The notes beneath the pieces are model-generated. The model did not search any database, was not told where the DNA came from, and saw nothing but the letters and a program-made list of their open reading frames with translations. Positions 9,306 to 52,740 of a DNA stretch of 64,000 nt are shown here, one piece after another (position 1 is the stretch's first letter; each line of letters begins with the position of its first letter). Source of the stretch: a virus (taxonomy: Duplodnaviria; Heunggongvirae; Uroviricota; Caudoviricetes); IMG/VR virus record IMGVR_UViG_3300042363_000940; one strand, written 5' to 3'. Made by a program: the position numbers and the translations under genes.

Positions 9306-9316
9306 AGTATGTAGAT

Positions 9317-28465: not shown

Positions 28466-29035
28466 TTAGAGTGTCAAAAACTTAATAACCTTCTCCTTTA
28501 CTCCCGATTGTTTGATGCCTTCATTTCCTTTTGGTGTTAAAACAAAATTATCTAACCCCCAAGTTTTCCATTCTTCATCATTACCCATGTTTAAATCGTC
28601 AATAGAAACCCAATGGGTTATCTCAGGATGGTCATGTAGGTATTGTTTAATTTCGATAACCCTACACATCTCCGAGTCCCATTGAGTTGACCATACCCAT
28701 GTCTTATCATTATACCAAGTACACTCAGATAAATCAGGAGTAAACGCAATTGGTTTCTTAATGATTCCTTTGGATTCATAATACTCTCCCATCTCTTCAA
28801 CATTCGCCCATCGTTTCCAATCTGATGAGACAACAATCTCAGCGCCTGTTTCTTCTAAGATTTCGTTAAGGATGGTAATCGCCTTTTTGTTAAAGTTGTC
28901 GAATCGAGCATCGACCGGTAAAGACAGAACGGATTGTGACAGTTTACGTCCAACCTTGGTTTGTTTTTTGAAACGACCGCCCCACTCTGTGGATAAACAG
29001 ATTACTCCGTCATGGTCTAAAAATATTACTTTCAT
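28466..29035 (-). CDS. HAD-like hydrolase (putative)
   Basis: N-terminal VIFLDHDGVI (DxDGV); weak. Confidence 0.4.
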   Translation of the reverse strand: MKVIFLDHDGVICLSTEWGGRFKKQTKVGRKLSQSVLSLPVDARFDNFNKKAITILNEILEETGAEIVVSSDWKRWANVEEMGEYYESKGIIKKPIAFTPDLSECTWYNDKTWVWSTQWDSEMCRVIEIKQYLHDHPEITHWVSIDDLNMGNDEEWKTWGLDNFVLTPKGNEGIKQSGVKEKVIKFLTL

Positions 29036-34586: not shown

Positions 34587-34886
34587 TTACTCTCTTTTTG
34601 GAACATAAAGCGTGTAAAACGCAGTAATCTCCTCATTGGGGACTATGTCTTTAATTGCCCTAATCATTATAAATCTACCTTCTTCATACACCTCACAATT
34701 GGGTGTTTCCGAATGATTAAAGAACCCACCAAGTGGTGTTCTACTATACCCATTTTCAAACTCATCATCTCTAATGTGGGTGATTCCAAACACATGATGT
34801 TTGAGAATGTTTTCTGTTGCGAATAGACCTAATCCGTCTATATCACTGTTTCTAATTGTTACGTTTTTTGGTAATGGTCTGTACAT
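34587..34886 (-). CDS. SET-domain protein (putative lysine methyltransferase), minimal 99 aa
   Basis: GLGLFA...FFNHSETPNCE...ITAFY corresponds to the SET GxG, NHSC-PNC and post-SET tyrosine signatures. Confidence 0.7.
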   Translation of the reverse strand: MYRPLPKNVTIRNSDIDGLGLFATENILKHHVFGITHIRDDEFENGYSRTPLGGFFNHSETPNCEVYEEGRFIMIRAIKDIVPNEEITAFYTLYVPKRE

Positions 34887-35220: not shown

Positions 35221-35760
35221 TTAGTCTACGTTTATCTTTATCTTTGTTTTTTCTCCGTTTGGTTGTGAATACACCGCATGTTGTGGTGTTAGTTCGTAAT
35301 TTAAACCTATCATCTTCCTAATGTACTTATTACCCGTTCCCGGTTTAAGATATGCCACGGTTAAATGTGGGTGGTAATCAGGATAATCGTTTGTGTGTGG
35401 ATACCCTCTCAATTCACCATTTGCATCATGAAGACTGTCACCCTCAACATCGAACTTTAATACATCATATTGTTTGTTCTTAAACAATGACGGGTTATGT
35501 ACTTTACATGATGGGTATGTGTGTTTATTCAATACATTTTTTACATCATCAATGGATACACCATCGTGTAAACCATATAGTAATGTGGTATGTGGTTCTG
35601 TCTCCAATCCGAATGAACCATCTTCTTCTTCGGTGTAAACATCGTTAGGGTCAATCATACCGTGGATGTACTTCATTTCAGGAAATGCGAAGTACAACAT
35701 TGCACAACCAAATTCGTACTTTGGTTTGTTTTCTTCATTAATAATATCCATTAGTTTCAT
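35221..35760 (-). CDS. 2H phosphoesterase (LigT / Acb1-like) family protein
   Basis: Two H-x-T/S-x motifs: PHTTLLYG and HPHLTVAY. Confidence 0.7.
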   Translation of the reverse strand: MKLMDIINEENKPKYEFGCAMLYFAFPEMKYIHGMIDPNDVYTEEEDGSFGLETEPHTTLLYGLHDGVSIDDVKNVLNKHTYPSCKVHNPSLFKNKQYDVLKFDVEGDSLHDANGELRGYPHTNDYPDYHPHLTVAYLKPGTGNKYIRKMIGLNYELTPQHAVYSQPNGEKTKIKINVD

Positions 35761-36258: not shown

Positions 36259-36546
36259 TTACTCAACTTCGGGCGTTTCTTCCGTACTATTTAATATAAT
36301 AATTTCCTTATGTTCCTTATCAACTAACAACGCAGTTACTGGTTTATCGACCCTATAGAAATGTTCTCCATCGAGTATTCCTTCTTCTCCATTAACCATT
36401 GAGTATTCCATAAACTCCTCAGGGAGTTTGTTAATCCATTCTTTTAATTCTTGTAGTATCATAATTCTAATTTGATAAATGTTTCTTTTTGTGTTGTAAT
36501 AGATTACCATACCCACCAATTTGTTTGCTACAAATATCACAAACAA
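36259..36546 (-). CDS. hypothetical protein (95 aa)
   Basis: ORF; overlaps the 3' end of the homing endonuclease ORF, so one of the two may be shorter. Confidence 0.35.
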   Translation of the reverse strand: MFVIFVANKLVGMVIYYNTKRNIYQIRIMILQELKEWINKLPEEFMEYSMVNGEEGILDGEHFYRVDKPVTALLVDKEHKEIIILNSTEETPEVE

Positions 36547-37129
36547 ATTTTTCTAAAGTTTTACCTTTGTTCCATGTAGGTTTTCCCTTTTTGGTTTCAC
36601 TTATTTTTTTACTATGTTCTTTTGTTCTTGGTGGTTTTGGTTTCCTTAATTTTTCTCTATTCTCTTCTTTTTTCATTGGATTATTATCACCTGATAATGC
36701 AATACTCATTTTATATCTATACTCATCAGATTTATGAAATCCATGTGATATTCTTTTTTGTATTGTTTCTTCAGATTGCGTTACCCCAATTTGATACTCT
36801 CTTAATTTTTGTTTATGCTCTTCTGTTTTTGGGTATCTTAACTTTTCTCTAACTTCATCTGATGGATTGAATAACCCCTCACCGCCATCTGTCATATTTG
36901 TCAATGTATCTCTACCATATTTTTGAATTAAATATTTTTCAGTATCACATGCACCTTCCCATTCAATATCCGATTCAATAATTTCAACATCATATCCATA
37001 TTTAGCAACAACGTTTTTCCAATGTATGTTTCTATTTCTATAAGAATAAGCTCTTTCTTCATAAAGGCCAATCCCAACATAAAAAACTTCATTAGTATTT
37101 TTCTTTTTGTGTAAATAAACAACTGCCAT
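36467..37129 (-). CDS. GIY-YIG homing endonuclease (free-standing, Seg/I-TevI-like)
   Basis: VVYLHKKKNTNEVFYVGIG (GIY-YIG), NUMOD-like K/R-rich repeats, C-terminal CDICSKQIGGYGNLLQHKKKH zinc finger. Confidence 0.8.
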   Translation of the reverse strand: MAVVYLHKKKNTNEVFYVGIGLYEERAYSYRNRNIHWKNVVAKYGYDVEIIESDIEWEGACDTEKYLIQKYGRDTLTNMTDGGEGLFNPSDEVREKLRYPKTEEHKQKLREYQIGVTQSEETIQKRISHGFHKSDEYRYKMSIALSGDNNPMKKEENREKLRKPKPPRTKEHSKKISETKKGKPTWNKGKTLEKFVCDICSKQIGGYGNLLQHKKKHLSN

Positions 37130-37200: not shown

Positions 37201-38493
37201 TCAATTGGACAAGGGCGCCTTAATTGTTGAATGCGATTGGTAATTATCCGTTTTAAAAGTGATATCCACATCTAAAGTATTAATAACCTCATCTACGGTT
37301 AATAAATGCCAATTTTCATTACCTGAATTGATTTTTAATGTGGGTAATTTAAATGGTTCTCTTGTGTGATTTGGTATTTTGTAAGAATTATAATACTCAC
37401 TTAAACCACCACCGAATGGTACTTGTTCATCAACCGCTGTTTTATAAAAATCACCCATTGCGGTCTTTAACAATTCTGTTCTCTCTTCGTGAGTGTATTT
37501 TCTTCCAATCTGTTCTTTAGCCTGTTCAATATGATTTGAATACAAATGTACATCACCTAAATTACCAATCAACTCATCAGGTACCATATTAACAGTTTTA
37601 GCAATTATTTCCAATAACAATCCATAAGATGCAATGTTGAATGGTAAACCTAAGAATGTATCTACTGAACGTTGATTCCACATTAATGAGATTGCTCTTG
37701 TTGGGATATTATGATTGTTTAGAACTTCTAATGTCCTTTCTTCAGGAATTACTGTCCCATAATTACCACCTCTTCTAAACTCAGAAGGGTCTAAATCTCT
37801 TTTTGTAAATTCTAATACTCTATCATTCAAACTCAACTCTCTTGTATAAACTTGAAATCCATAATGACAAGGAGGTAAAGTCATTTTATCCAACTCCCCC
37901 ACATTCCAAGCACTAACCATTAATCGTCTTGAGTCTGGATTTGTTTTAAGGTCGTTGATTAGATTTTGGATTTGGTCTATTGGTGGGTATTTGAAATATG
38001 ATACCCCATCGAGATATTCATCCTCGGTTTCCCAACTTCTCCATTGTTTACCATATATTGGACCTAACTCACCCCATTTCTTAGCAAACTCATCATCGGT
38101 TTTGATTTTGTCAATAAATTCTTCTATTGTAAATGGTTCAGTTAATGTTCTATTTTTCTTAGAATTCTCTAATAATTTGGTTTTACCAACATATTCACCT
38201 TTATTATATCTTTTAATATAGGCTTGGTAAGCATCACCATTCCAAATGTGACAATTGTTATCAACTAAATATTTAATGTTTGTATCACCACGTAAGAACC
38301 ATAATAATTCAGTTACAATAGTTTTCCAAGCCATCTTCTTGGTTGTAAGTAAAGGAAACCCTTCACTCATTTTATGACGTATTTGTCTACCAAATACTGA
38401 AATGGTACCACCATTTCTTGTTTCTTTCTTAACTCCATTATCAAGAATGTCTTGTAGGAGTAATTGATATTGTTTATCTATGTTATTCATCAT
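37201..38493 (-). CDS. thyA: thymidylate synthase ThyA with three large insertions (430 aa)
   Basis: FPLLTTKKMAWKTIVTELLWFLRGDTN, LPPCHYGFQVY (catalytic Cys), QRSVDTFLGLPFNIASYGLL, DVHLYSNH; extra segments of about 50, 45 and 50 aa relative to E. coli ThyA. Confidence 0.9.
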   Translation of the reverse strand: MMNNIDKQYQLLLQDILDNGVKKETRNGGTISVFGRQIRHKMSEGFPLLTTKKMAWKTIVTELLWFLRGDTNIKYLVDNNCHIWNGDAYQAYIKRYNKGEYVGKTKLLENSKKNRTLTEPFTIEEFIDKIKTDDEFAKKWGELGPIYGKQWRSWETEDEYLDGVSYFKYPPIDQIQNLINDLKTNPDSRRLMVSAWNVGELDKMTLPPCHYGFQVYTRELSLNDRVLEFTKRDLDPSEFRRGGNYGTVIPEERTLEVLNNHNIPTRAISLMWNQRSVDTFLGLPFNIASYGLLLEIIAKTVNMVPDELIGNLGDVHLYSNHIEQAKEQIGRKYTHEERTELLKTAMGDFYKTAVDEQVPFGGGLSEYYNSYKIPNHTREPFKLPTLKINSGNENWHLLTVDEVINTLDVDITFKTDNYQSHSTIKAPLSN

Positions 38494-38852
38494 TCAAATG
38501 TTTGTATTTTGGCATCTACTTCTTTTAATTCTGACCATGTTCCAAGATATGTGATTGCCCTAACTTTCCTGTTATCAATCCACACATACTCTTGTCCGTC
38601 TTTGATTCTTGGTTTGTCCATAACCAATCCATGGTATTTAAAACCTTTTTCTTTTAACCACGTTTCGGTAACTTCTCTGTCTTTACTTTCTCTTGCAGTA
38701 AAGAAGGTAATGATATGACCTTCATCATACCATTTATTGATTATATCCAATGCGTTTGGGAAATGATTTGCGGTTACATATAAATGACTGTCTTCGTTTT
38801 TGATGTCATCACAGATTGTTCCGTCGATATCGATTAAAAATACCTTACCCAT
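38490..38852 (-). CDS. small HAD-family phosphatase
   Basis: MGKVFLIDIDGTICDD (DxDGT); start trimmed to the ATG at 38850-38852, 4 nt downstream of the GS stop. Confidence 0.6.
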   Translation of the reverse strand: MGKVFLIDIDGTICDDIKNEDSHLYVTANHFPNALDIINKWYDEGHIITFFTARESKDREVTETWLKEKGFKYHGLVMDKPRIKDGQEYVWIDNRKVRAITYLGTWSELKEVDAKIQTFE

Positions 38853-38856
38853 TTTA

Positions 38857-39987
38857 TTATTCTTCGTCTTTTTTATACTCTTCAAATAATTCATCGTTTG
38901 AAAGTGTTCCGTATTTTGTTGACAAGTCATCGGTTTTAATTTCAGCGTACATTACATGTAATGTATTTTTTAACTCATCTGCTAATGATAGTGATTTACA
39001 AATAACAGTTAAGATTCTGTAAGGGTCAGCGTTTGAACCGGGTCGTCTATCTTCAAGATAACCCCTCCACGTTTCTCCGACGGTTTTTGGAACCCTAATT
39101 GATGCACCTCTATCAGATACACCCCAACTGAATTTATCAATTGATTGTGTTTCAAATTTACCCGTTAATCTTAAATGATTATCGGAACCATAATTTTCAA
39201 TATGAATTTTTGTCCTACTTTCAAATGTTTTAAAGATTGCGTTGAAGTATTCTTCCCCACCTGTCTCTCTCATTTTTTGGTTTGAGAAATTGGCATGTAA
39301 ACCTGAACCATTCCATTCACCTGTCGTAATTGGTTTAGGGTGTAACTCAATTGCCACCGAATATCTTTCAGAAATTTTATTTAAGAAGTAACGAGACATC
39401 CATAAGTCATCAGCACCTTTAAGTTTACCTTTAGCAAAGATTTGATATTCCCATTGACCCAATGCAACTTCTGCGTTTGTTCCTTCAAGATTGATACCAT
39501 AGTTTAAACACATATCTAAATGTTCATCACTAATAAGTCTACCAACAACATGACCACCAACACCGCAATAGTATTTTCCTTGTGGGTCAATCATCCCACC
39601 ATTTTCAAAACCCAATACAGGTTGGTTATGTCCTGAACGAATAAAATATTCTTGTTCAAATCCAACCCAAAAATCGGTATCTTCTTCCCCAACTTTTGCT
39701 CGGTAATTTGATGGGTGAATCTCATTGTTTCCGTCAAGTACTTCACACAACACATAAACTGTTGGGTAATCATCTTTACTGTTATTGTTTTTATAAAACC
39801 TAACAGGTTTTAAGTAACAATCGGAGAAGTTACCCTCCGCCTGCATTGTTGAACTTCCATCGAATCCCCAGTTAGAGATGTCATCAATGGTTAACTCGCC
39901 GTTATAGTCAACGACTTTAATTTTACTTCTAAGATTTGGTTCGGGTGAATATCCATCCAACCAAACGTACTCAAATTTAATTTTCAT
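38857..39987 (-). CDS. glnII: glutamine synthetase, type II (eukaryote-like)
   Basis: EYVWLDGYSPEPNLRSKIKVV, NWGFDGSSTMQAEG, GKYYCGVGGHVVGR, GTNAEVALGQWEYQI, NFSNQKMRE, ASIRVPKTVGE, YLEDRRPGSNADPY all match GSII blocks. Confidence 0.85.
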   Translation of the reverse strand: MKIKFEYVWLDGYSPEPNLRSKIKVVDYNGELTIDDISNWGFDGSSTMQAEGNFSDCYLKPVRFYKNNNSKDDYPTVYVLCEVLDGNNEIHPSNYRAKVGEEDTDFWVGFEQEYFIRSGHNQPVLGFENGGMIDPQGKYYCGVGGHVVGRLISDEHLDMCLNYGINLEGTNAEVALGQWEYQIFAKGKLKGADDLWMSRYFLNKISERYSVAIELHPKPITTGEWNGSGLHANFSNQKMRETGGEEYFNAIFKTFESRTKIHIENYGSDNHLRLTGKFETQSIDKFSWGVSDRGASIRVPKTVGETWRGYLEDRRPGSNADPYRILTVICKSLSLADELKNTLHVMYAEIKTDDLSTKYGTLSNDELFEEYKKDEE

Positions 39988-40210
39988 TCTGTTGTTTTTT
40001 TAATTTATCTATGCATTTGTAAATGCAATATGATTCTTCGATTGTGAACGCACCTTCTTTGTTCGCATGGGTAAGTGCGATATCGATAAGTTTTAATGCG
40101 TTTTCAGGTTCAATAGTTTCAAGGAATTCTTTAAAGTCCGATTCCTCTTCATATTCAAAGTCCCCGTTAAAAAGTGTACTCATATCAAAAATATAAGAAA
40201 TTATTTTCAA
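39977..40210 (-). CDS. acidic hypothetical protein (77 aa)
   Basis: ORF. Confidence 0.4.
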   Translation of the reverse strand: MKIISYIFDMSTLFNGDFEYEEESDFKEFLETIEPENALKLIDIALTHANKEGAFTIEESYCIYKCIDKLKKQQNEN

Positions 40211-40232: not shown

Positions 40233-40595
40233 ATGTCAGTAATAATTAACGATAAACAGTACGTGGCGGAATATCTGTCGACTCCCGAGGAAATAATGAA
40301 GGGAATGATGGGTAGAGACACCCTTGAGGGTTGTATAGTCTTCAAGATGGGAATGGGTCACCATTCGTTTTGGATGAAGAACTGTTACATACCATTGGAC
40401 ATTGTATTCGTGAATAAGAATAGAATTTCACATATCCATAAAAACTGCGAACCCGCCGGAAATAAACTTAATCCACCGAGATACACCGGTATCGGGGACC
40501 ATGTCATTGAATTTCCAACGGGAACCGCTAATAACTTTAAAGTGGGTGATAGGGTTGCCATGTACTTAGGTGCACCTGTGAACCCCGTTCGTTAA
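40233..40595 (+). CDS. DUF192 (COG1430)-like protein
   Basis: GMMGRDTLEGCIVFKMGMGHHSFWMKNCYIPLDIVFVNKNRI resembles the DUF192 consensus (GLMxR...FWMKNTxIPLDIxF). Confidence 0.5.
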   Translation: MSVIINDKQYVAEYLSTPEEIMKGMMGRDTLEGCIVFKMGMGHHSFWMKNCYIPLDIVFVNKNRISHIHKNCEPAGNKLNPPRYTGIGDHVIEFPTGTANNFKVGDRVAMYLGAPVNPVR

Positions 40596-41449
40596 CCTTC
40601 GTATTCGGGGAACAAATTATAATCAAACTGATTGATTCTCTGACGAGAAATCTCGGTGTACTTTTCAGATAGTTCAAATCCGATATAGTTTCTACCCAAT
40701 TTCTTTGCCGCAAGTGCCGTGGTTCCCGAACCTGAGAAACAATCCAATACCAAATCATTTTTAAATGAAAGGATTTTAATTGCCTTAACCGGAATATCCA
40801 TTGAGAAGGTTGCCTTAGTTAATGACTTCGTATCGTTGAAGTATTTCCACTGACCGAACACCAACTCCATAAACTCATTCTTATCTTTATCAGAATAGAT
40901 TCGTTTAGTTCTTGTTTTGGGGTCTTCACCTTCTTCCACCTCAACGTCAACTTGTGCTTCAGTATATGACCACGTTGAGATACCTTTATCTTTCTTCTTG
41001 TAGTCTTTCTTATATGCAAGAATAACACATTCTTTTGGATTATATATGTACGGTGCTGACGGTGACATCCACGAACCCCACGCAGTTGTTTTAGAACGGT
41101 GTGGAGAATCTTCCTCTAAATCGACAACACCAAAGAAACCGAATCCAATCTCTTTCATTATCTGCCAGTATTCAGATACGATGAATACACGACCGCCACG
41201 TTCCCTTACGTTTACTTCATAAGGTATGTTAATCGCAACACGACCATCGTCCTTTAATGTTCTGTAAACTTCAGATAACCAAGTTCTACACCACTCAAAG
41301 TAATCACCCATAGGTACATCGTCTATATGTGTATCATATGCGATACCAACATTATATGGTGGTGATGTGACCACTAAATCTATTGTGTTATCACCCAATT
41401 CTTTGAATAGTTCAACACAATCTCCGTTATAAATTTTATTCGATTCCAT
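40592..41449 (-). CDS. beta-class DNA methyltransferase (N6-adenine or N4-cytosine)
   Basis: Motif IV DLVVTSPPYNVG near the N-terminus and motif I LDCFSGSGTTALAAKKLGRNYIGFE near the C-terminus. Confidence 0.8.
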   Translation of the reverse strand: MESNKIYNGDCVELFKELGDNTIDLVVTSPPYNVGIAYDTHIDDVPMGDYFEWCRTWLSEVYRTLKDDGRVAINIPYEVNVRERGGRVFIVSEYWQIMKEIGFGFFGVVDLEEDSPHRSKTTAWGSWMSPSAPYIYNPKECVILAYKKDYKKKDKGISTWSYTEAQVDVEVEEGEDPKTRTKRIYSDKDKNEFMELVFGQWKYFNDTKSLTKATFSMDIPVKAIKILSFKNDLVLDCFSGSGTTALAAKKLGRNYIGFELSEKYTEISRQRINQFDYNLFPEYEG

Positions 41450-41998: not shown

Positions 41999-43357
41999 AT
42001 GAAGAAAAAGATTCTATTATTATCTGATGATTTAAGAATGACATCGGGTGTTGCTACTATGTCAAAAGAATTGGTAATGGGTACTATTCACAAGTACGAT
42101 TGGGTACAGTTGGGTAGTGCAATCAACCATCCTGAGGCAGGTAAAATTGTAGATATAAATGCGGACATTAGGGAGAAGACAAGAGTACTTGATGCAAACC
42201 TTAAAATCATTCCAAGTAATGGATATGGTAATATTTTTACATTGAGGTCTCTTATTGAGTCTGAGAAACCTGACGCAATATTACACTTCACCGACCCACA
42301 TTACTGGCAATGGTTGTACGAGGCGGAACATGAGATTAGACAACAAATTCCAATTCTATATTACCACGTGTGGGATAACCTACCTGACCCAACCTATAAT
42401 AGAAACAATTATGAAAGTTGTGATTGGATTGGTTGTATCTCCAAACAAACATATGGTTTAGTCCATAGAGTGGGTAAAATGGATAACGAACCAACCTTCA
42501 AACCTTTGGAGGATTGGCAAATCAGTTATGTTCCTCACGGTATTAATTCAGATGTGTTCAAACCAACAGATAGTGTTGCTGATGATTTAAAGAAATACAT
42601 TTACGAAGATAAAGAATATGATTTTATTCTATTCTATAACAATCGTAACATCAAAAGAAAACAACCGGGTGATGTGATATTATCATATAAATTATTCTGT
42701 GATTCTTTACCTAAAGAACAATCCGATAAATGTTTATTGTTAATGCACACCACACCAATCGATGAGAATGGTACCGACCTACCGGCGGTGGCTAAAAGTG
42801 TTTGTCCCGACTATAATATTAAGTTTGTTAACTTAAAATTGGAACAGAATAAATTGAATGAGTTGTATAATATTGTTGACTGTACAATTAACATTGCGAA
42901 CAACGAAGGTTTTGGTTTGGGTACCGCCGAAAGTATAATGGCTGGCACACCAATCATTGTTAATGTCACAGGTGGATTACAAGACCAATGTGGTTTTGAT
43001 TACACCGCAGACAATTACATAACATTCGGTTCACTCCACAATAGAAAGAAACACGGTTCAACTTTACATGGTGAATGGGTTGTACCCGTTTGGCCATCCG
43101 TTAACAATCTAAATGGTTCGGTCCCAACTCCTTTCATTTATGAAGACAGAGTAAACAATAATGATGTTGCCGGTGCAATTTCTGAAGTTTATGGTTGGGG
43201 TAAAGAAGGAAGAAAAGAACGAGGATTAAAAGGTAGAGAATGGGCAATCGAAAACCTATCAAGTAAAGTGATGTGTGATTCATTAATTGATGGAATTGAA
43301 ACAACTTTCAAAAACTATAAACCTAAAAAGAAATTTGAATTATATCGTATAGTATGA
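41999..43357 (+). CDS. GT-B glycosyltransferase (GT1/GT4-like)
   Basis: NNEGFGLGTAESIMAGTPIIV matches the E(x7)E sugar-donor binding motif. Confidence 0.75.
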   Translation: MKKKILLLSDDLRMTSGVATMSKELVMGTIHKYDWVQLGSAINHPEAGKIVDINADIREKTRVLDANLKIIPSNGYGNIFTLRSLIESEKPDAILHFTDPHYWQWLYEAEHEIRQQIPILYYHVWDNLPDPTYNRNNYESCDWIGCISKQTYGLVHRVGKMDNEPTFKPLEDWQISYVPHGINSDVFKPTDSVADDLKKYIYEDKEYDFILFYNNRNIKRKQPGDVILSYKLFCDSLPKEQSDKCLLLMHTTPIDENGTDLPAVAKSVCPDYNIKFVNLKLEQNKLNELYNIVDCTINIANNEGFGLGTAESIMAGTPIIVNVTGGLQDQCGFDYTADNYITFGSLHNRKKHGSTLHGEWVVPVWPSVNNLNGSVPTPFIYEDRVNNNDVAGAISEVYGWGKEGRKERGLKGREWAIENLSSKVMCDSLIDGIETTFKNYKPKKKFELYRIV

Positions 43358-44601
43358 GTAAACCTTTTTTATTATTTAGAGGACCCGTTGAAACATTAAG
43401 TGGGTATGGAGCACACTCGAGAGATTTATTGAGGTCTCTTCGTGACATGGACTTATTTGAAATAAGGGTGGATTCGTGTCATTGGGGTTCAACACCAAAA
43501 ACGGCATTACAAGAGGATACCGAATATAATAAGTGGATACTTGCGCATATCGTTAAAGTGATACCCGCAACTCCCGATGTTTATGTTCAGGTTACAGTAC
43601 CAAATGAATTCCAAAAGATTGGTAGGTTCAGTATCGGTATAACTGCCGGTATTGAAACAACAATGGCATCAAAGGAATGGATTGATGGTTGTAACAGAAT
43701 GGATTTAATCATCACAACTTCAACCTTCTCCAAGGAAGTACTACTTCAAACCGTTTACAATGAAACTGATAACCTAACCGGTAAACTAATTAAACAACAT
43801 AAAATTGAGAAACCTGTTGAGGTTCTTTTTGAGGGTGTTGACACTGAAATTTATAATGATAAATTTTCAGGGTTAGATGTTGGAATTAACGAAGATTTTT
43901 CTTATCTTTTTGTTGGTCACTGGTTAAAAGGTAATTTAGGTCAGGATAGAAAAGATGTTGGTATGTTAATTAAGTGTTTCTCTGAGGCATTTAAGGATTC
44001 GGAAGAACAACCCGCATTAATTCTTAAAACATCTTCAGCATCTTTTTCGATAAAAGAAAGAGAAAACTTTAAGAAGAAAATTTCTGATTTGGTTAAGGGA
44101 ATTGAAAACCCACCGCCAATCTATCTTTTATTCGGTGAGTTAACAGACAAGGAAATGAATGAGTTATACAATCACCCAAAAGTGAAGGCAATGGTAACCT
44201 TAACAAAAGGCGAAGGATTCGGTAGACCTCTACTTGAGTTCTCAATGACAGGTAAACCTATTCTTGCATCTAATTGGTCGGGACATAAAGACTTCTTACC
44301 AATGGATAAGGCAGTAATGTTAGGTGGTTCATTGACTGATGTTCATGAGAGTGTTGTTGATTCATTTATCATCAAGGGGTCAAAATGGTTTACACCAAAC
44401 TATGGTGAAGTTGTTGAGATTATGAGAATGGTTAAAAATGAATATGACACGTTCTACGGTAACTCTCAAGTTTTGATGGAAGAGAATAGAGAAAAATATT
44501 CGATGTCAAAAATGACCGAGAAGTTTGAATCAATCATAACACCATATGTGGTTAAACCTAAAGAAGTTAAATTAAAAATACCTCAGTTAACAAAACTATA
44601 A
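43354..44601 (+). CDS. GT-B glycosyltransferase (GT1/GT4-like)
   Basis: TKGEGFGRPLLEFSMTGKPILAS motif; start overlaps the previous gene (ATGA). Confidence 0.7.
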   Translation: MSKPFLLFRGPVETLSGYGAHSRDLLRSLRDMDLFEIRVDSCHWGSTPKTALQEDTEYNKWILAHIVKVIPATPDVYVQVTVPNEFQKIGRFSIGITAGIETTMASKEWIDGCNRMDLIITTSTFSKEVLLQTVYNETDNLTGKLIKQHKIEKPVEVLFEGVDTEIYNDKFSGLDVGINEDFSYLFVGHWLKGNLGQDRKDVGMLIKCFSEAFKDSEEQPALILKTSSASFSIKERENFKKKISDLVKGIENPPPIYLLFGELTDKEMNELYNHPKVKAMVTLTKGEGFGRPLLEFSMTGKPILASNWSGHKDFLPMDKAVMLGGSLTDVHESVVDSFIIKGSKWFTPNYGEVVEIMRMVKNEYDTFYGNSQVLMEENREKYSMSKMTEKFESIITPYVVKPKEVKLKIPQLTKL

Positions 44602-44882
44602 TGGGATTACTTGACAATTTTAAATTAGGTAGAGAAAATGAAGACAATTCATTTTTATTTACGAACCATAACCTTCAATTATTTACATTACAACCGACAG
44701 TTACATTTAATCAAACCGAATGGATGTTTCAATTTGATGAAGGTGAACCGACGGTTTTCGCAACACAACAAGAAGAATCCAATTTAACGATAACACTCAA
44801 CAACACCAATCACGCATCGATAGAATTTACGGGACCCAATAATCAAAAATTTAAAATATTCGCAAGAGAAAGACAACAATGA
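44601..44882 (+). CDS. hypothetical protein (93 aa)
   Basis: Translationally coupled ORF. Confidence 0.4.
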   Translation: MGLLDNFKLGRENEDNSFLFTNHNLQLFTLQPTVTFNQTEWMFQFDEGEPTVFATQQEESNLTITLNNTNHASIEFTGPNNQKFKIFARERQQ

Positions 44883-45505
44883 AAATAAGTTATGCAATTA
44901 CCGTTTGTGATGAGTTACAAGAAATCAAAAGACTTGTACCGTTTCTTTTAGAACATAAAAGACCTGAAGATGAAATCATAGTTTTATATGACCAAAAAAA
45001 TGGGTCGGATGAGGTAATTGATTTCTTATTACCATTTAATAGATTCCCACATGTTCAAACATGGAGAGGTATGGTTTTCGTAAATGATTTTTCTATTTGG
45101 AAAAACAAATTAAACGATTACTGTGGTGGTGATTACATTTTACAATTGGATGCGGATGAAATGATTACCGAGGAACTAATTAAAATGTTACCGGCAATAC
45201 TTGAATCAAATCCTGAAGTTGATTTGTTTGTACTTCCTCGAATAAACACGGTGGATGGTATAACCGAAGAACACATTAACAAGTGGGGATGGAAACAAGA
45301 TGAACAGGGTAGAATTAACTTCCCTGATTGGCAGGGTAGATTATACCGTAAAGGTTTAAACTGGTATGGTAAAGTTCATGAAAAAATTATAGGGGCAAAG
45401 AAATATTCGATTATGCCTGAAGATGAGGGATTTTGTATCCTTCATCCTAAAACAATCGAGAGACAGGAAAGACAAAATAATTTTTACAGTAAAATTCAAA
45501 AGTAA
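44879..45505 (+). CDS. putative GT-A glycosyltransferase (GT2-like)
   Basis: ISYAITVCDE N-terminal pattern and DXD motif QLDADEMI. Confidence 0.5.
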   Translation: MKISYAITVCDELQEIKRLVPFLLEHKRPEDEIIVLYDQKNGSDEVIDFLLPFNRFPHVQTWRGMVFVNDFSIWKNKLNDYCGGDYILQLDADEMITEELIKMLPAILESNPEVDLFVLPRINTVDGITEEHINKWGWKQDEQGRINFPDWQGRLYRKGLNWYGKVHEKIIGAKKYSIMPEDEGFCILHPKTIERQERQNNFYSKIQK

Positions 45506-46263
45506 TGAAGTTAATTTTAGCAACTGGGTCCGATATAAATTATATGACCAAGATGAGACCATACTTTAAATCAATTGAGAAAAACTCAAACTTCGATAAG
45601 AATGTTTTGGTTTTTGTTGGTGATGGGGAAGGTTTATCATTACCATTTAAAACTATCGATATCGCAACATTATCGATTTCAGACGTACAGGCATTGAATA
45701 ATAATAAGTGTGTTCAACACGGGGATTTCTTAAACTCCAATCACTTCAATTCAATAACCCAAGATGATGACGTTATCTTCTATACTGACGGTGACATCAT
45801 CCTTCAACGTAACATGACTGACGAAGAGTTAGAACAATTCAGAAACTTCAAAGATGGTGACGTTTATGTTGGTTATAATGCATCACCAACTGACACATTA
45901 ATGATTGAATCGGGTAGATTAGGTCAAACGGGTGTTAAGGTTGACGGTGTGAGTGACAAACCGTGGGATAAGATTAAAGTCTATAACACCGGTGTTCTCG
46001 CAATGAATAAAAGAACTTGGGCTAAACTACTAAGTGACTATGTTGAATTGTATCCGTCAGTTGAACCAATGTTTGCGCATTACGCAAAACAACAATGGTT
46101 GATTTCATTTTTGATTGGCACAAGAGAAGATTACAATATAATCGAAATGCCGTACCATATCCATAATCATTTACATTTCCCAAGTCCTGAGGGTACAATC
46201 CAAGATAAAAACGGTGATGTATTTTTTAACAATAAAAAAGTATTATTCAAACACAAATGGTAG
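45505..46263 (+). CDS. putative nucleotide-diphospho-sugar transferase
   Basis: DXD-like FYTDGDIILQ; weak. Confidence 0.4.
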   Translation: MKLILATGSDINYMTKMRPYFKSIEKNSNFDKNVLVFVGDGEGLSLPFKTIDIATLSISDVQALNNNKCVQHGDFLNSNHFNSITQDDDVIFYTDGDIILQRNMTDEELEQFRNFKDGDVYVGYNASPTDTLMIESGRLGQTGVKVDGVSDKPWDKIKVYNTGVLAMNKRTWAKLLSDYVELYPSVEPMFAHYAKQQWLISFLIGTREDYNIIEMPYHIHNHLHFPSPEGTIQDKNGDVFFNNKKVLFKHKW

Positions 46264-46913
46264 AAATTTTTAAAAGGATATCTGAAATTGATATCAAAGA
46301 AATCGATTTAAATGTTTTAGAAACAATTCTCCCCACATTTGGTATGAATGGTGAGAATTCGAGAGAGTTACCTTCAGAATTGTCTGAACACTTTAATGAA
46401 GGTATTCGTTTTTGGCAGTACCCAAATCAATTTGCTCCGTATCTTAAACAAATATCAAAATATAGAATTAAATCGTATCTTGAAATTGGTTGTAGGTGGG
46501 GTGGTACGTTTATTATAACAAAGGAAATATTAACCAAAATAAATGGTGAAGTTAATGGATTCGCGTGTGACTTTATGCCACAATCAAGGATGCTTGACGA
46601 ATACCAAAAATATGGTAATTTTAACTACTTACAAACTCATAGTCAAAAATTAAAAAGAGAATCAATAAATCAAGATATTGATTTAATTTTAATTGATGGT
46701 GACCACAGTTATGAAGGGTTAAAAAGAGATTTTGAAATCTGTAAACAATATAACCCCAAATACGTATCTTTTCATGATATATGTAGTGACGCATGTCCTG
46801 GCGTTGTTAAGTTTTGGAATGAAATTAAGGAACAATATAAACACTATGAATTTATGAGTCAATATGATAGTGTTGACGGTAATTTTTTAGGTATTGGTTT
46901 AATAGAGATTTAA
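46257..46913 (+). CDS. class I SAM-dependent methyltransferase (Methyltransf_24 / CmcI-like)
   Basis: LEIGCRWGGTFII and LILIDGDHSYEGLKRDFEI motifs. Confidence 0.6.
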   Translation: MVEIFKRISEIDIKEIDLNVLETILPTFGMNGENSRELPSELSEHFNEGIRFWQYPNQFAPYLKQISKYRIKSYLEIGCRWGGTFIITKEILTKINGEVNGFACDFMPQSRMLDEYQKYGNFNYLQTHSQKLKRESINQDIDLILIDGDHSYEGLKRDFEICKQYNPKYVSFHDICSDACPGVVKFWNEIKEQYKHYEFMSQYDSVDGNFLGIGLIEI

Positions 46914-46914
46914 T

Positions 46915-48012
46915 ATGGAGTACGATTATCTAATAGTTGGTGCCGGTTTCTTCGGTTCCATATGTGCCCACGAATTAACTAAGTCAGGTAAAAAAGTTTT
47001 AGTTATTGATTCAAGAGAACACATCGGTGGCAATTGTTACACCGAGAATAAAGATGGTATCAATGTTCAAGTATACGGTGCACACATCTTCCACACATCA
47101 AACAAAGAAGTGTGGGATTGGATTAACCAATTCGCTGAGTTTAACAACTATAGACACCATGTGATTGCCAACTACAAAGAAGAATTATATTCACTTCCTT
47201 TTAGTATGTGGACATTCAATAAACTGTGGGGAGTTAAGACACCTCAACAGGCGAAAGATATGATTGCAGAACAATCAAATGATATTGAAGAACCGAGCAA
47301 CTTAGAAGAACAGGCAATCAAACTTGTAGGTAAGGATGTTTATGAAAAACTCATTAAGGGTTATACTCATAAACAATGGATGAAAGACCCCAAGGAATTA
47401 CCAAAGGAAATCATTAAGAGGTTACCAGTTCGTTTTACCTATGACAACAATTATTTCTTTGACAAATATCAAGGTATCCCAATTGGTGGTTACACTCAGA
47501 TTTTTGAAAAGTTATTAGAGGGAGTTGAGGTTAGATTGGGTGTGGATTATTTTAAAGGTAGTTTACCTAAACATAACAAAGTAATATTCACAGGACCAAT
47601 CGATAAGTTCTTCGGTTACAAGTACGGTAAGTTAGAATACAAAACAGTTAGTTTCGAACACCAGTATTATAGTTCACCAAACCTTCAGGGTGTCCCTGTA
47701 ATGAACTATACTGATGTGGATGTACCATTCACTCGTATCATTGAACATAAACACTTTGAGGGTTTAGAAACGAATGGCTCGTGGATTACATATGAATACC
47801 CACAAGAGTATGTGGCAGATAAAACTGACCCATATTATCCTGTGAACGATAAAGAGAACAATGAAATGTTTTCAAAATATAAAGAAGAGGCGGAGAAAGT
47901 TAAGGATTGTGTATTGTTTGGTGGAAGACTTGGTGAATACAAATACTATGACATGCATCAGGTTGTCGAATCAGCACTAAACTTTATTAAAAAGGAAATC
48001 GATGGAAATTAG
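46915..48012 (+). CDS. glf: UDP-galactopyranose mutase
   Basis: YDYLIVGAGFFGSICAHEL...KKVLVIDSREHIGGNCYTE...VYGAHIFHTSNKEVWDWINQF aligns with Glf along its length. Confidence 0.9.
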   Translation: MEYDYLIVGAGFFGSICAHELTKSGKKVLVIDSREHIGGNCYTENKDGINVQVYGAHIFHTSNKEVWDWINQFAEFNNYRHHVIANYKEELYSLPFSMWTFNKLWGVKTPQQAKDMIAEQSNDIEEPSNLEEQAIKLVGKDVYEKLIKGYTHKQWMKDPKELPKEIIKRLPVRFTYDNNYFFDKYQGIPIGGYTQIFEKLLEGVEVRLGVDYFKGSLPKHNKVIFTGPIDKFFGYKYGKLEYKTVSFEHQYYSSPNLQGVPVMNYTDVDVPFTRIIEHKHFEGLETNGSWITYEYPQEYVADKTDPYYPVNDKENNEMFSKYKEEAEKVKDCVLFGGRLGEYKYYDMHQVVESALNFIKKEIDGN

Positions 48013-49105
48013 TTTTGTACTTGCGGTATTCAATAAATTAGACCTCACCAAGGATTGTTATAAAAGACTTCGTGAAATCTATCCCGATGCACCATTAGTA
48101 ATCAGTAGTGGGGGTTCAACAGATGGTACCAAAGAATGGTTAGAGTCTTTAGATGACGATAATCTTTCATTTGTTCACGATGATGATAGGTTAACCTTCT
48201 CAGAAACGTATAATGCTGCAATTAAGATTGTAGATACGGAGAAACTTGTCCTTATTCACAACGATATGGTCATTGGGAGACACTTTCTCGAGAATTTGAA
48301 TAGATTACTCACACCAGACACTTTGATGTGTTATACGACCTTAGAACCACCCATTTTTGCTGGTCACCAAAGACCCGGTAAAGTGATAATGGACTTAGGT
48401 AGTTCGTTCCACGATTTTAAATGGGAAGAATTTGATTCATATGTTGAAGAGAATAAGAACAACTGTCAGATATATGATGGTGGTGTGTTCTTTATGAGTG
48501 GTTATAAGAAACTATTCGAGGATGTGGGTTACTTTGATGGATTTAGTTTTGTACCAGCGTTTGCTGAGGATGATGACTTCTTAATCAGAACCAAACTGAA
48601 GGGATATAAATTAAAAACCACATCATGCGCAATCACATATCACTTTGTTTCACAGACTTCTCGTTTCAGTGATGATTACAAGAAAGATAGATTTAAGTAT
48701 GAGGTTAACTCAAATAGAAACTTTGTTCGTAAATGGGGCATATCAATTCCATCATTCAATGAATTAAGATATTGGGAGGATAATCTATTTGTTTATAAGA
48801 CTTTCACCATGGGTTTAACCACTCGCAGTCGAGCAAGGTTATTTGAGATAGAACCGTTCTTCGATAAAATCGATTTAGGGACAATTCCCGAGGATTACAT
48901 CGAGAATGAACAGAAGAATACTCGTTATGATTTAAGGTCGAAATTTGTCCTTACAGATATCGTAGATGTGATGGTTTATGAAGTTCAACCAATGACTGAT
49001 GATGACATCTACACGTTACAGAAATTGAGGTTATCAATTCCATATTATGAACCGGGTGAATACCAAGTAGGTTCATTAAAGATAGAAATAAGAAAGGGGG
49101 TATAA
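48002..49105 (+). CDS. GT2-like glycosyltransferase (candidate galactofuranosyltransferase)
   Basis: ISFVLAVFNKLDLTKDCY N-terminal GT2 pattern; directly coupled to glf. Confidence 0.55.
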   Translation: MEISFVLAVFNKLDLTKDCYKRLREIYPDAPLVISSGGSTDGTKEWLESLDDDNLSFVHDDDRLTFSETYNAAIKIVDTEKLVLIHNDMVIGRHFLENLNRLLTPDTLMCYTTLEPPIFAGHQRPGKVIMDLGSSFHDFKWEEFDSYVEENKNNCQIYDGGVFFMSGYKKLFEDVGYFDGFSFVPAFAEDDDFLIRTKLKGYKLKTTSCAITYHFVSQTSRFSDDYKKDRFKYEVNSNRNFVRKWGISIPSFNELRYWEDNLFVYKTFTMGLTTRSRARLFEIEPFFDKIDLGTIPEDYIENEQKNTRYDLRSKFVLTDIVDVMVYEVQPMTDDDIYTLQKLRLSIPYYEPGEYQVGSLKIEIRKGV

Positions 49106-51072: not shown

Positions 51073-52740
51073 TTATTTGTATTTATATCTAATTATTACG
51101 ATACCACTTCCACCATTTCCTCCTTGGTTATTTCCATTGTAATGAGAACCCCCGCCACCGCCACCACCGGTGTTGGTACCTCCATTTCCTCCCGGAACGT
51201 TTGCCCATGAACAACACGCACCGTATGCTCCGGGTACTCCCCACATGATTGAATCTTTTCCCCCTTCACCTTGTCCAAGAGCACCTCCACCCCCGCCACC
51301 ACGACCTCCATATCCACCCGCATCATTTGAGTAAGCGGAACCTCCTCCGCCACCGCCCCAATAATATGGTCGGCCTAATATACCTGAAAATTTACCTGAA
51401 CCACCGTTTGGTCTTGAAGGTGAGTTGGTACCAACTGCACCAGCACCTCCACCTCCACCTGAATAGTATTGTCCACCACCTTGACCACCATTAAATCCTT
51501 GACCCGATATTCCTGTACCTCCACTTCTTATATTTCCATCACTATATCCACTTGGTGCCCCTCCCGAACCACCATTACCTGGTGTACCGTAGTTAGGGGT
51601 ATAACCATAATATGAACTTGCTCCAAATCCACCACCTGTGGATGTTAACCCTAATGCAGATGAACTATCACCTTGGGATGCACCTATTTGAAATTGATGA
51701 AATTGTGGTTGTCCCGGTGTATTTGCTGCAGGTGCTCCCGCACCACCAGCCCCAACTGTTATGGTATAAGTGGTTTGATTTAAAACGGTTCGTCCCGATA
51801 AGACACCTCCGCCACCTCCTCCGCCGCCCATGTCCATACCTCCACCGCCACCACCGGCAACGATAAGATATTCCACTTCCAATAATGAAGCGTCGGCAGT
51901 TGATGTGATTGCGAATGTACCACTACTATTAAATCTGTGAACTCTCCATTCACCCACTTCGGTGATAACACCACCAGTGGCAATTACTCTATGATGTTTA
52001 AATGAAGAACCTGAAGTGTTTATTGTTAAGGATTCTAATTTGTTTTGTCTGTTATTATCTAATAAGTTTTGTATTGTTGGTTCTGAACCATCACATAAAT
52101 CAACTCGTGGGTCAAAAAATTGTAATCGTGTTGTATTGTCACCGCAATAGTAAAGATAAGTTCTATGATTTAATCCATATGTACTTGGTCCTGATTTACA
52201 ATCACTACCAATATTACAACCATTAATACTTCCAACTTTTCCTCCTGTTGTTGTCCAAAATCCAGTATCGGGGTGTCCACCCAATCCTTGTGGATAGTCA
52301 AATGGAAAACAATGACCAACAACTAAGTACCATTGGTCTTGTGTTAAACCTCCCGAACCACCACAATGCCAATATGGGTTACACTCCTCGTTTCCGTCGG
52401 ATAGTCTTATAACACATTGACCAATACCATTTGTACCTAAATAAAATGTTCCACCAGCACTAACGGATGTTCTTTTAACCCAAACAGAATGTCTATATAA
52501 TTTTGTGTTGTCGATATAAAACCAATCGGTGTTCCATCCACCGTCGGGGTTTCCATTACCTGATGGTCTTGTTTCCCAAACAACGGCGGAATTACCCCAC
52601 GGGTCGGTACCAACTACTCTTGCATTCTCATCGCCATTTTCATTGGCAGAAAAATTACCAAGGGGTGTGGCAAAACTACTTGAACCCGTTGTCCAATCGT
52701 TTCCCGTTATTTTACTCGATGTTTTATAATATACTGGCAT
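51073..52740 (-). CDS. glycine-rich structural protein (555 aa)
   Basis: Globular N-terminal about 250 aa followed by about 300 aa of poly-Gly low complexity (GGGGGGMDMGGGGGGGG..., GGSGG repeats). Confidence 0.7.
   Translation of the reverse strand: MPVYYKTSSKITGNDWTTGSSSFATPLGNFSANENGDENARVVGTDPWGNSAVVWETRPSGNGNPDGGWNTDWFYIDNTKLYRHSVWVKRTSVSAGGTFYLGTNGIGQCVIRLSDGNEECNPYWHCGGSGGLTQDQWYLVVGHCFPFDYPQGLGGHPDTGFWTTTGGKVGSINGCNIGSDCKSGPSTYGLNHRTYLYYCGDNTTRLQFFDPRVDLCDGSEPTIQNLLDNNRQNKLESLTINTSGSSFKHHRVIATGGVITEVGEWRVHRFNSSGTFAITSTADASLLEVEYLIVAGGGGGGMDMGGGGGGGGVLSGRTVLNQTTYTITVGAGGAGAPAANTPGQPQFHQFQIGASQGDSSSALGLTSTGGGFGASSYYGYTPNYGTPGNGGSGGAPSGYSDGNIRSGGTGISGQGFNGGQGGGQYYSGGGGGAGAVGTNSPSRPNGGSGKFSGILGRPYYWGGGGGGSAYSNDAGGYGGRGGGGGGALGQGEGGKDSIMWGVPGAYGACCSWANVPGGNGGTNTGGGGGGGSHYNGNNQGGNGGSGIVIIRYKYK

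Follow-up and report, generated by a model that had tools for sequence, protein, structure and literature searches.

A predicted type II glutamine synthetase with an intact active site and a clade-specific C-terminal extension in a probable freshwater jumbo phage

Type II glutamine synthetases (GSII or GlnII) have chains of about 330–380 residues, as against about 470 in GSI and about 730 in GSIII, and they form decamers of two pentameric rings with the active sites at the subunit interfaces. The closest cellular relatives of the glutamine synthetase (GS) analysed here are bacterial GlnII proteins, among them those of Stieleria marina, Zunongwangia, Pirellula and Opitutales, which share its two-domain architecture, core length and catalytic residues and are 50–56% identical to it over residues 1–333. 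These proteins end at about 331–343 residues and have no counterpart of its tail of about 43 residues, whereas the phage clade has the tail, a longer branch and four fixed core differences. The solved GSII enzymes of S. coelicolor (GlnII, 4BAX), yeast (Gln1, 3FKY), human (GLUL, 2OJW/2QC8/7EVT) and maize (GS1a, 2D3A) have the same fold (TM 0.75–0.85), 38–41% identity in structural alignments and identical metal, ATP, glutamate and ammonium residues; the phage protein differs from them in lacking a eukaryote-type N-terminal extension and in having an extra C-terminal helical tail. GSII is also borne by the huge phages LR756501/LR756503, LR745206 and LR756502 (630–735 kb), at 43–56% identity to the GS of our window (the whole 64,000-nucleotide stretch analysed, from IMG/VR record IMGVR_UViG_3300042363_000940). 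These huge-phage proteins are tail-less (331–365 residues) and fall outside the clade of the window protein, among or beyond bacterial GlnII, which suggests that phages acquired such genes independently.

The presence of GS in huge and jumbo freshwater phages is already known, and the novelty of the gene itself is low. In the Huge Phage Genome Collection 248 GS genes were counted in 247 huge phages (10.1101/2025.02.27.640493), GS was reported in 9 of 25 freshwater ‘moraphages’, the predicted host of the GS-bearing freshwater jumbo phages being Flavobacteriia (PMC12619734), and a jumbo-phage survey likewise catalogues GS AMGs (PMC13037316). Like the window phage, the catalogued carriers come from freshwater, with genomes of 200–320 kb and predicted Bacteroidota hosts, and the role proposed for the gene is manipulation of host nitrogen metabolism (10.1101/2025.02.27.640493; PMC12619734; PMC13037316). 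In the accessible text of these reports GS appears as an annotation only, and no GS class, active-site state, phylogeny or C-terminal extension was found there. The initial annotation of our locus had called GSII-like enzymes unusual in a bacteriophage; this holds only for deposited phage genomes, in which 5 of 50,697 records contained a match. Among jumbo phages of freshwater the gene is common, and its presence in huge or jumbo aquatic phages had been catalogued in 2025, so that rarity and novelty had been overstated. What is added here is the assignment to a class, the bacterial origin, the proof of an intact active site and the clade-specific tail, which appears to be the only feature of the phage GS not yet described.

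The GS gene lies on the minus strand at 38857..39987. Its open reading frame starts with ATG, encodes 376 residues and ends in a double stop (TAA TAA), exactly as initially annotated, and the assignment to GSII was also borne out, as the GlnII profile and the GSII structures match the protein end to end. Gln-synt_N (residues 6–85) and Gln-synt_C were both found above the Pfam gathering cutoffs; the former marks an N-terminal beta-grasp domain (residues 1–90; 39718..39987, minus strand), and the catalytic domain spans residues 99–333 (38989..39693, minus strand). The NCBIfam GlnII model aligned over positions 1–327 of 333 with 320 bits (E 1.9e-95), compared with 42 bits for the GSI model and 28 for GSIII. 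Against sequences of solved structures, yeast Gln1 gave 283 bits, S. coelicolor GlnII 270 and the human, plant and insect enzymes about 245, all GSII falling within 236–283, whereas GSI structures reached only about 30. These matches identify the phage protein as a type II glutamine synthetase of full length. The 320 bits are below the equivalog cutoff of the GlnII model (NF041605, 500 bits), which defines a subgroup narrower than the GSII class; chromosomal GlnII of Stieleria, Zunongwangia, Pirellula, Opitutales and an alphaproteobacterium scored 378–423 bits, likewise under 500, and the low score was therefore dropped as an argument against GSII identity.

The predicted fold agrees with this. 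An AlphaFold monomer model (pTM 0.77) matched S. coelicolor GlnII best (TM 0.85), followed by the yeast, human and plant enzymes, and all of the top 50 Foldseek matches were GSII. Two loops, 129–145 and 269–307, which include active-site loops, had low confidence, as is expected of loops ordered by a subunit interface or a ligand. By analogy with characterised GSII, the phage enzyme probably assembles as a decamer.

Residue mapping showed that the canonical metal, ATP, glutamate and ammonium residues are the same as in human GS at 25 of 25 positions, and all of them are invariant across 47 distinct sequences of the viral clade. The metal ligands E111, E113, E173, E180, H231 and E312 correspond to human E134, E136, E196, E203, H253 and E338, and W107, N226, G227, N233, S235, R240, R273, R293, R298, Y310, R314 and R315 make up the ATP, phosphate and glutamate sites. 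The ammonium pocket, formed by D43, S46, Y140 and the Glu-flap residue E279, equals human D63, S66, Y162 and E305. In GSII the ammonium-site residues of the N-terminal domain, here D43 and S46, extend into the active site of the adjacent subunit. The ammonium and glutamate sites, whose conservation the initial annotation had named as a point to check, are thus intact, and the degenerate site it had considered as the mark of a pseudo-enzyme was not found. Since the catalytic residues are fully conserved in a clade that is otherwise only 58–87% identical, and since the dN/dS of the core is about 0.1 (0.08–0.16 in the viral clade), we infer that the enzyme is apparently competent to convert L-glutamate, ATP and NH4+ into L-glutamine, ADP and Pi.

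With an intact and invariant active site, the reading of the protein as a pseudo-enzyme was rejected. GS serves as a partner of regulators in some bacteria, as Bacillus GS does with TnrA/GlnR and the cyanobacterial enzyme with IF7/IF17, and these moonlighting precedents, together with a clade-specific tail that could be an interaction module, would fit a regulatory decoy titrating host nitrogen regulators or GS-binding factors. Such a role is nevertheless highly improbable in view of the perfect conservation of the catalytic residues and the low dN/dS of the core, and to our knowledge the regulator–GS partnerships on record concern GSI, not GSII.

The same residues bear on the suggestion, also made initially, that the protein works as a gamma-glutamyl ligase on another amine, such as a polyamine or ethylamine. 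Ethanolamine was considered as well, and the product might serve in detoxification or be a modified metabolite or a precursor for DNA modification. Other amines have become substrates of GS-fold enzymes time and again, as in PuuA, GlnA3/GlnA4 and the theanine synthetase-like GSII of plants, the viral branch is long, and a DNA methylase and ThyA are encoded nearby. Moreover, the viral clade differs systematically from cellular GlnII at four core positions, Y78, K204, L230 and W288, and L230 adjoins the metal ligand H231. All four are, however, non-catalytic, the ammonium pocket and every other canonical residue agree with those of genuine GS and do not vary within the clade, and the score with the model for gamma-glutamylputrescine synthetase (GGputSyn) was 16.8 bits, where the cutoff is 650. 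There is also no sign of a hypermodification pathway, since the neighbouring ThyA has retained its dUMP-type motif and scores above the equivalog cutoff for thyA. We therefore regard a different amine substrate as quite unlikely and retain glutamine synthesis as the predicted activity, with the reservation that the long branch may reflect altered kinetics or regulation.

In a neighbour-joining tree with 200 bootstrap replicates, the viral proteins, with L085 (a tail-less member on a contig binned in a ‘Flavobacteriaceae’ MAG), formed one clade (200/200) among bacterial GlnII. The nearest cellular relatives were GlnII of Bacteroidota, Planctomycetota, Verrucomicrobiota and Gammaproteobacteria, at 50–56% identity. 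The branch is long, 0.70 to cellular GlnII as against 0.45 among the cellular proteins themselves, and eukaryotic GSII are still more distant, at about 1.05. By its position among bacterial GlnII at this identity, the phage GS is of bacterial and not eukaryotic origin, so that the label ‘eukaryote-type’ used initially is apt as the historical name of the class but misleading as to the nearest relatives.

The gene is phage-borne, as had been claimed. The window encodes virion-type and lysis-type proteins and homing endonucleases and yields PHROG matches. The identical GS protein was found on at least 20 contigs of up to 310,691 bp from many samples, in the same gene order; relatives at 58–87% identity occur on 120 IMG/VR contigs of up to 288 kb, and further relatives on contigs of 304–322 kb; apart from the IMG/VR contigs, the gene lies on contigs of 166–322 kb. 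A nucleotide search of GenBank phages gave no match. The reading of GS as a cellular gene, placed among viral sequences through faulty assembly or classification of a host contig, deserves next to no credence: one of the contigs that the window matches does belong to a metagenome assembly at NCBI, and L085 does come from a cellular bin, but the same gene order recurs independently in the contigs of many samples, no cellular genome among 185,579 species had a relative above 61% identity, and none of 80 cellular loci contained a neighbour gene of the window. The neighbours of L085 itself are phage-type (a phrog_249 ATPase, a spanin-like gene, ART-PolyVal and ORFans), and its contig, rejected as a donor or host chromosome, is probably a mis-binned phage contig.

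On the minus strand GS is packed tightly with its neighbours. The HAD-superfamily phosphatase downstream (38490..38852, 120 residues; Pfam LNS2/Acid_phosphat_B/HAD_PNKP, phrog_1238/415) starts at 38852, 4 nt past the GS stop, and is probably co-transcribed with GS; it is followed by ThyA (37201..38493, minus strand), so the reported adjacency of the three genes was correct. ThyA is a long form of 430 residues with insertions (Pfam 290 bits; TIGR03284 297, cutoff 108) and, aligned from end to end, shows 59.6% identity to the ThyA of Flavobacterium phages. Upstream, the stop of a small minus-strand open reading frame (39977..40183, 68 residues from ATG) overlaps the GS start. It had no Pfam or PHROG match, and it was rejected as a conserved partner of GS, since at least five unrelated families of open reading frames occupy this slot in relatives; the overlap is attributed to compact gene packing. 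A search at the Rfam gathering threshold or E<=1 revealed no glutamine riboswitch and no group I intron near thyA or the homing endonuclease, and a scan for promoters and terminators gave counts at background level, the sigma-70 consensus being unsuited to Bacteroidota.

What is conserved across the viral clade is the linkage of GS to an N6/N4 DNA methyltransferase (40592..41449, minus strand; Pfam, 131 bits) and a DUF192 protein (40233..40595, plus strand; Pfam), not the immediate GS–HAD–ThyA adjacency, which occurs in the window and in close relatives. A HAD/PNK-type phosphatase likewise adjoins GS in L085, and in two other relatives a guanylate kinase (L169) or a GuaC/IMPDH-like gene (L073) lies beside it. 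The initial idea of a nucleotide-metabolism neighbourhood in which GS supplies precursors thus gains weakly from the latter two genes and loses by the missing conservation of the adjacency; because the immediate neighbours vary between relatives, a functional coupling of GS to nucleotide metabolism is no more than suggestive.

The surroundings of the gene also allow another destination for the glutamine: by way of the host's GlmS it could go mainly into amino sugars and glycans for the extensive glycosylation machinery of the phage rather than into nucleotides. At a distance of 2 kb from GS there is a seven-gene glycan cluster, whose products include GT1-like and GT2 enzymes, a methyltransferase and UDP-galactopyranose mutase, further glycosyltransferases are encoded elsewhere in the window, and in relative L170 GS is flanked by a glycosyltransferase/epimerase cluster. 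On the other hand, neither GlmS nor any other glutamine-dependent amidotransferase was found among about 45 open reading frames of the window, amide nitrogen is not required for galactofuranose or for the remaining predicted sugars, and in L168 and L169 the 8 kb on either side of GS are free of glycan genes. Glycan synthesis as the main use of the glutamine is therefore unlikely.

The likely role of the enzyme would instead be a host-independent supply of glutamine for nucleotide and other amide-dependent synthesis. The nucleotide-metabolism genes beside GS and an AspAT-like aminotransferase encoded elsewhere in the window speak for this role, the lack of a glutamine-consuming amidotransferase gene in the window against it. 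According to the model we propose, the gene was taken up from bacteria of a GlnII lineage by a forerunner of these phages; purifying selection has kept it since. During infection GS would be expressed from the tightly packed minus-strand run of the small open reading frame, GS, HAD phosphatase and ThyA, and would form glutamine through a gamma-glutamyl phosphate intermediate, presumably independently of the GS genes of the host and of their control by nitrogen status. The amide-nitrogen pool on which the synthesis of purines, pyrimidines, amino sugars and NAD draws could thus be sustained as the phage copies its very large genome in water poor in nitrogen. Taken as a whole, this account of a competent GSII, captured from bacteria, kept by selection and supplying glutamine in a jumbo phage, seems to us probable. 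That an abundant lineage of freshwater jumbo phages keeps an intact GS under strong purifying selection is a stronger indication of rewired host nitrogen assimilation than annotation, and by infecting their hosts these viruses may change how ammonium is assimilated in lakes.

The clade-specific C-terminal extension comprises residues 334–376 (about 43 residues; 38860..38988, minus strand) and is present in all tail-bearing viral GS (370–437 residues). No homologous tail was found in cellular GlnII, and a Pfam search with the isolated tail gave no match. Its near-invariant residues are A336, L339, M346, Y347, L367, L368, E370, Y371 and D374, the window protein having F at position 368 where L is near-invariant elsewhere in the clade, and its end is acidic. 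In the monomer model helices were predicted at 322–347, 352–359 and 364–374 with pLDDT of 55–65. The dN/dS of the tail was below 1 and noisy. Longer variants of the tail carry a second acidic module with the terminal motif EEIKF(N/D)(I/L)N. The placement of the tail-less L085 outside the tail-bearing group received bootstrap support of only 11/200. Possibly the tail serves in stabilisation of the oligomer or docking of a partner. It is conceivable, albeit doubtful, that it is a phage innovation which alters GSII function in the infected cell and makes the protein a distinct, virus-adapted subtype and not merely a host enzyme taken over as it was. If so, it could lock the rings, much as the C-terminal ‘helical thong’ locks the rings of GSI together, confer insensitivity to host feedback or turnover, or dock GS onto another phage or host protein.

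The carrier is probably a jumbo phage from freshwater, with a genome of about 300 kb and a host among the Flavobacteriia (Bacteroidota). The GS-bearing IMG/VR contigs come from freshwater JGI samples, and the host is suggested indirectly by the scarcity of Shine–Dalgarno motifs (3 of 44 open reading frames in the window), the likeness of ThyA to that of Flavobacterium phages and the published host prediction. Within the window none of the hallmarks of moraphages (H1-like histone, DnaK/DnaJ, TerL/MCP/PolB clade) was found; a faint DnaJ-like match lies near GS in L168. The size, habitat and host prediction of the window phage are consistent with those of moraphages.

The open reading frame that the initial annotation had placed at 38857..39987 exists exactly so on the minus strand: it begins with ATG, encodes a protein of 376 aa and ends in a double stop (TAA TAA). 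The label 'glutamine synthetase' is already attached to this protein in source databases. Pfam searches placed both glutamine synthetase (GS) domains, beta-grasp (residues 6-85) and catalytic, above their gathering cutoffs, and the NCBIfam GlnII model matched the whole length of the protein (model positions 1-327 of 333, E 1.9e-95, 320 bits), whereas the other GS-family models of NCBIfam were far weaker (GSI, 42 bits; GSIII, 28; gamma-glutamylputrescine synthetase, 17). The top matches among PDB sequences were all GSII, with yeast Gln1 at 283 bits, Streptomyces coelicolor GlnII at 270 bits and human, plant and insect enzymes at ~245 bits, while GSI structures reached only ~30 bits. We also built an AlphaFold2 model on 46 family sequences (pTM 0.77, core confident); Foldseek returned S. 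coelicolor GlnII first (TM 0.85, target-normalised), then yeast, human and plant GSII. The conserved GSII blocks first noticed along the whole protein were thus borne out by the Pfam domains, the near-full GlnII profile match and the PDB matches. The score of 320 bits lies below the NCBIfam GlnII equivalog cutoff of 500 bits; however, chromosomal GlnII proteins of Stieleria marina (complete genome), Zunongwangia, Pirellula, Opitutales and an alphaproteobacterium also fell below it, at 378-423 bits, so the cutoff delimits a subgroup narrower than the class, and a score below it is a poor guide to class membership.

We then compared the active site with that of human GS, mapping residues through a HMMER alignment in native numbering; at each number the human residue printed by the script was of the expected type. 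All 25 residues examined were the same in the phage protein and in human GS. In human numbering, these are the metal ligands (E134, E136, E196, E203, H253 and E338), residues binding ATP, phosphate or glutamate (W130, G192, N194, Q205, N248, G249, N255, S257, R262, R299, R319, R324, Y336, R340 and R341) and those of the ammonium pocket and flap (D63, S66, Y162 and E305). The same 25 positions were invariant across 47 distinct sequences of the viral clade, which are otherwise 58-87% identical to the window protein, so the active site is not degenerate and the reading as a pseudo-enzyme, the refutation named in the initial annotation alongside a check of the ammonium- and glutamate-binding residues, is rejected. 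The suggestion that the enzyme might act on another amine is disfavoured, as the intact ammonium pocket argues against a different amine substrate. In the core, dN/dS was 0.08-0.16 (Nei-Gojobori, window protein against six relatives), and only four positions, Y78, K204, L230 and W288, were fixed differently from cellular GlnII (n=77), none of them catalytic. Catalytic competence of the window protein is strongly supported by sequence, and we predict with high confidence that the gene encodes a functional phage GSII.

The protein had also been described as 'eukaryote-type (type II)'. Type II stands, but an affinity to eukaryotes does not. A search of 185,579 prokaryotic species, one genome per species, gave best matches of 50-61% identity, among them GlnII from Saprospiraceae, Pirellula and other Planctomycetota, Opitutales and other Verrucomicrobiota, Granulosicoccaceae, Halieaceae, Flavobacteriales, Cytophagales and others. 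The sole match at 61%, contig SHWW01000027.1 (L085), is binned as 'Flavobacteriaceae'; the neighbours of its GS gene include a phrog_249 CobS/MoxR-type ATPase, a spanin-like gene, ART-PolyVal, ORFans and, adjoining GS, a HAD/PNK-type phosphatase. This context is phage-like, so L085 is probably a mis-binned phage contig. In a neighbour-joining tree (113 taxa, 329 columns, 200 bootstraps), the viral sequences and L085 formed one clade with a bootstrap of 200/200, which sat among bacterial GlnII with no resolution of its sister group. Cellular GlnII lay at a mean distance of 0.70 from the window protein, eukaryotic GSII at 1.05 and Streptomyces GlnII at 0.99. The term 'eukaryote-type' is therefore only a historical class label, and the sequence relationships mark the source of the gene as bacterial. 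The GSII homologs of huge phages of 630-735 kb (LR756501 and others) share 43-56% identity with the window protein, have no C-terminal extension and fall outside the viral clade, which suggests separate acquisitions.

Cellular GlnII proteins are 331-343 aa long, whereas those of the viral clade have 370-437 aa. The extra segment corresponds to residues 334-376 of the window protein and could be aligned over the whole clade, with near-invariant A336, L339, M346, Y347, L367, L368 (F in the window protein), E370, Y371 and D374. The tail is predicted to prolong the last core helix (322-347) and to add short helices at 352-359 and 364-374, with modest confidence (pLDDT 55-65). Its dN/dS was below 1 but noisy, at 0.08-0.7 over ~40 codons. 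It had no match in Pfam, and when the tail was compared by blastp with cellular C-termini, nothing was returned at E<=10. When 1.84 billion representatives (50% identity clusters) were searched exhaustively, about three of them stood for the tail-bearing clade; in all others the match to the window protein ended at about residue 333-343. Longer variants of 387-437 aa (relatives L033, L071, L075, L079, L083, P0016, P0053, P0108 and P0366) carry, in addition, an acidic linker and a second C-terminal module that ends with the motif (E/T)EEIKF(N/D)(I/L)N, which the window protein does not have. The placement of the tail-less L085 relative to tail-bearing members had a bootstrap of 11/200. The tail might stabilise contacts between rings, alter regulation or dock a partner; we offer these as hypotheses only.

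The gene spacing on the minus strand agreed with the reported position of GS beside thyA and a HAD phosphatase. A 68-aa ORF on this strand overlaps the GS start, the HAD phosphatase begins 4 nt past the GS stop and overlaps at its own end with the next gene, ThyA (37201..38493), so that the four genes look like a co-transcribed run. The small upstream ORF was rejected as a conserved partner of GS, since at least five unrelated ORF families occupy that slot among relatives. HAD and ThyA are found near GS, at variable spacing, only where the relative is at least 71% identical; steadier, and conserved throughout the clade, is the linkage to a DUF192 gene (40233..40595, plus strand) and an N6/N4 DNA methylase (40592..41449, minus strand). 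Nucleotide-metabolism genes nevertheless recur beside GS: in addition to ThyA and HAD in the window, a guanylate kinase (9190..9675) flanks GS in relative L169, which has thioredoxin and glutaredoxin upstream, and a GuaC/IMPDH-family gene (347 bits) lies immediately upstream of GS in relative L073. No riboswitch or intron was detected with Rfam. Just downstream of thyA lies a free-standing GIY-YIG/NUMOD3 homing endonuclease gene (36467..37129, minus strand), a pair that recalls phage T4, where thymidylate synthase is associated with a homing endonuclease.

The best-supported reading of the role, held with moderate confidence, is a host-independent supply of glutamine. Phage GS would provide glutamine to sustain biosynthesis dependent on amide nitrogen, above all that of nucleotides, while a ~300-kb genome is replicated in nitrogen-poor freshwater. 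No glutamine-dependent amidotransferase is encoded in the window. The initial interpretation is supported in part: the functional GSII holds, while the glutamine and nucleotide supply is what we infer. A class I/II aminotransferase (12183..13448, minus strand), closest to aspartate aminotransferases (PDB 6f77, 99 bits), is a second glutamate-linked enzyme of nitrogen metabolism in this phage.

At least 20 contigs in assemblies from NCBI, JGI and ENA carry the identical GS protein, and the gene order is the same in all of them; the longest has 310,691 bp. IMG/VR held 120 relatives of 58-87% identity on contigs of up to 288 kb, and more distant clade members sit on contigs of 304 kb and 322 kb. 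The 80 best cellular loci contained none of the window's neighbour genes, and the window had no nucleotide match among 50,697 GenBank phage records. A giant minus-strand ORF (54325..63996; 3223 aa, no Pfam match) is followed on that strand by three ORFs that match PHROG virion-protein families: a PHROG-only ORF (53553..54323), a Laminin_G_3 protein (52748..53536) and a Gly_rich_2 protein (51073..52740). One protein gave weak matches to both the peptidoglycan-binding domain PG_binding_1 (22.1 bits, Pfam cutoff 23) and an endolysin PHROG. Together with the Laminin_G_3 and Gly_rich_2 proteins, the homing endonuclease and the DNA methylase, this protein, a glucosaminidase and many ORFans make up the phage-type content of the window.

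Shine-Dalgarno-like motifs preceded only 3 of the 44 ORFs of the window, which is about background (4%), and A made up 48% of the leaders, a pattern shared with Bacteroidota and their phages. ThyA is an unusual long form: at 430 aa it has insertions that are absent from the Pfam model. Its identity to the ThyA of the cultured Flavobacterium phages vB_FspM_immuto is 59.6% across the full length. According to a 2025 study, moraphages are freshwater jumbo phages of 200-307 kb with Flavobacteriia as predicted hosts (PMC12619734). The clues point to Flavobacteriia as the host of the window phage.

Large phages with GS genes have been reported before: the same study reports GS in 9 of 25 moraphage genomes, and a 2026 survey lists glnA among jumbo-phage AMGs (PMC13037316). 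The consulted passages of these publications give no GS class, active-site state, bacterial GlnII origin or clade-specific tail. The window GS thus adds a well-verified further case, and the tail is one modestly new structural detail.

Several other genes were observed in the window. A candidate Acb1-like (anti-CBASS) 2H-phosphoesterase (35221..35760, minus strand) scored 25.7 bits, just below the Pfam cutoff of 27, and near it lies a 99-aa ORF (about 34587..34886, minus strand) labelled as a SET domain in the precomputed gene table. Two RNA-repair-like genes on the minus strand encode a PolyA_pol/CCA-adding head domain protein (14770..15504) and a HAD_SAK_2 ('Swiss Army Knife RNA repair') domain protein (28466..29035). 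A large plus-strand cluster (41999..49105) suggests synthesis of galactofuranose-containing glycans: it encodes a UDP-galactopyranose mutase (247 bits) and a methyltransferase along with four glycosyltransferases, two of them GT1-like and two GT2. Further GT2 and GT47/RXYLT1-like genes are found on the minus strand at 5085..5822 and 11262..12143.
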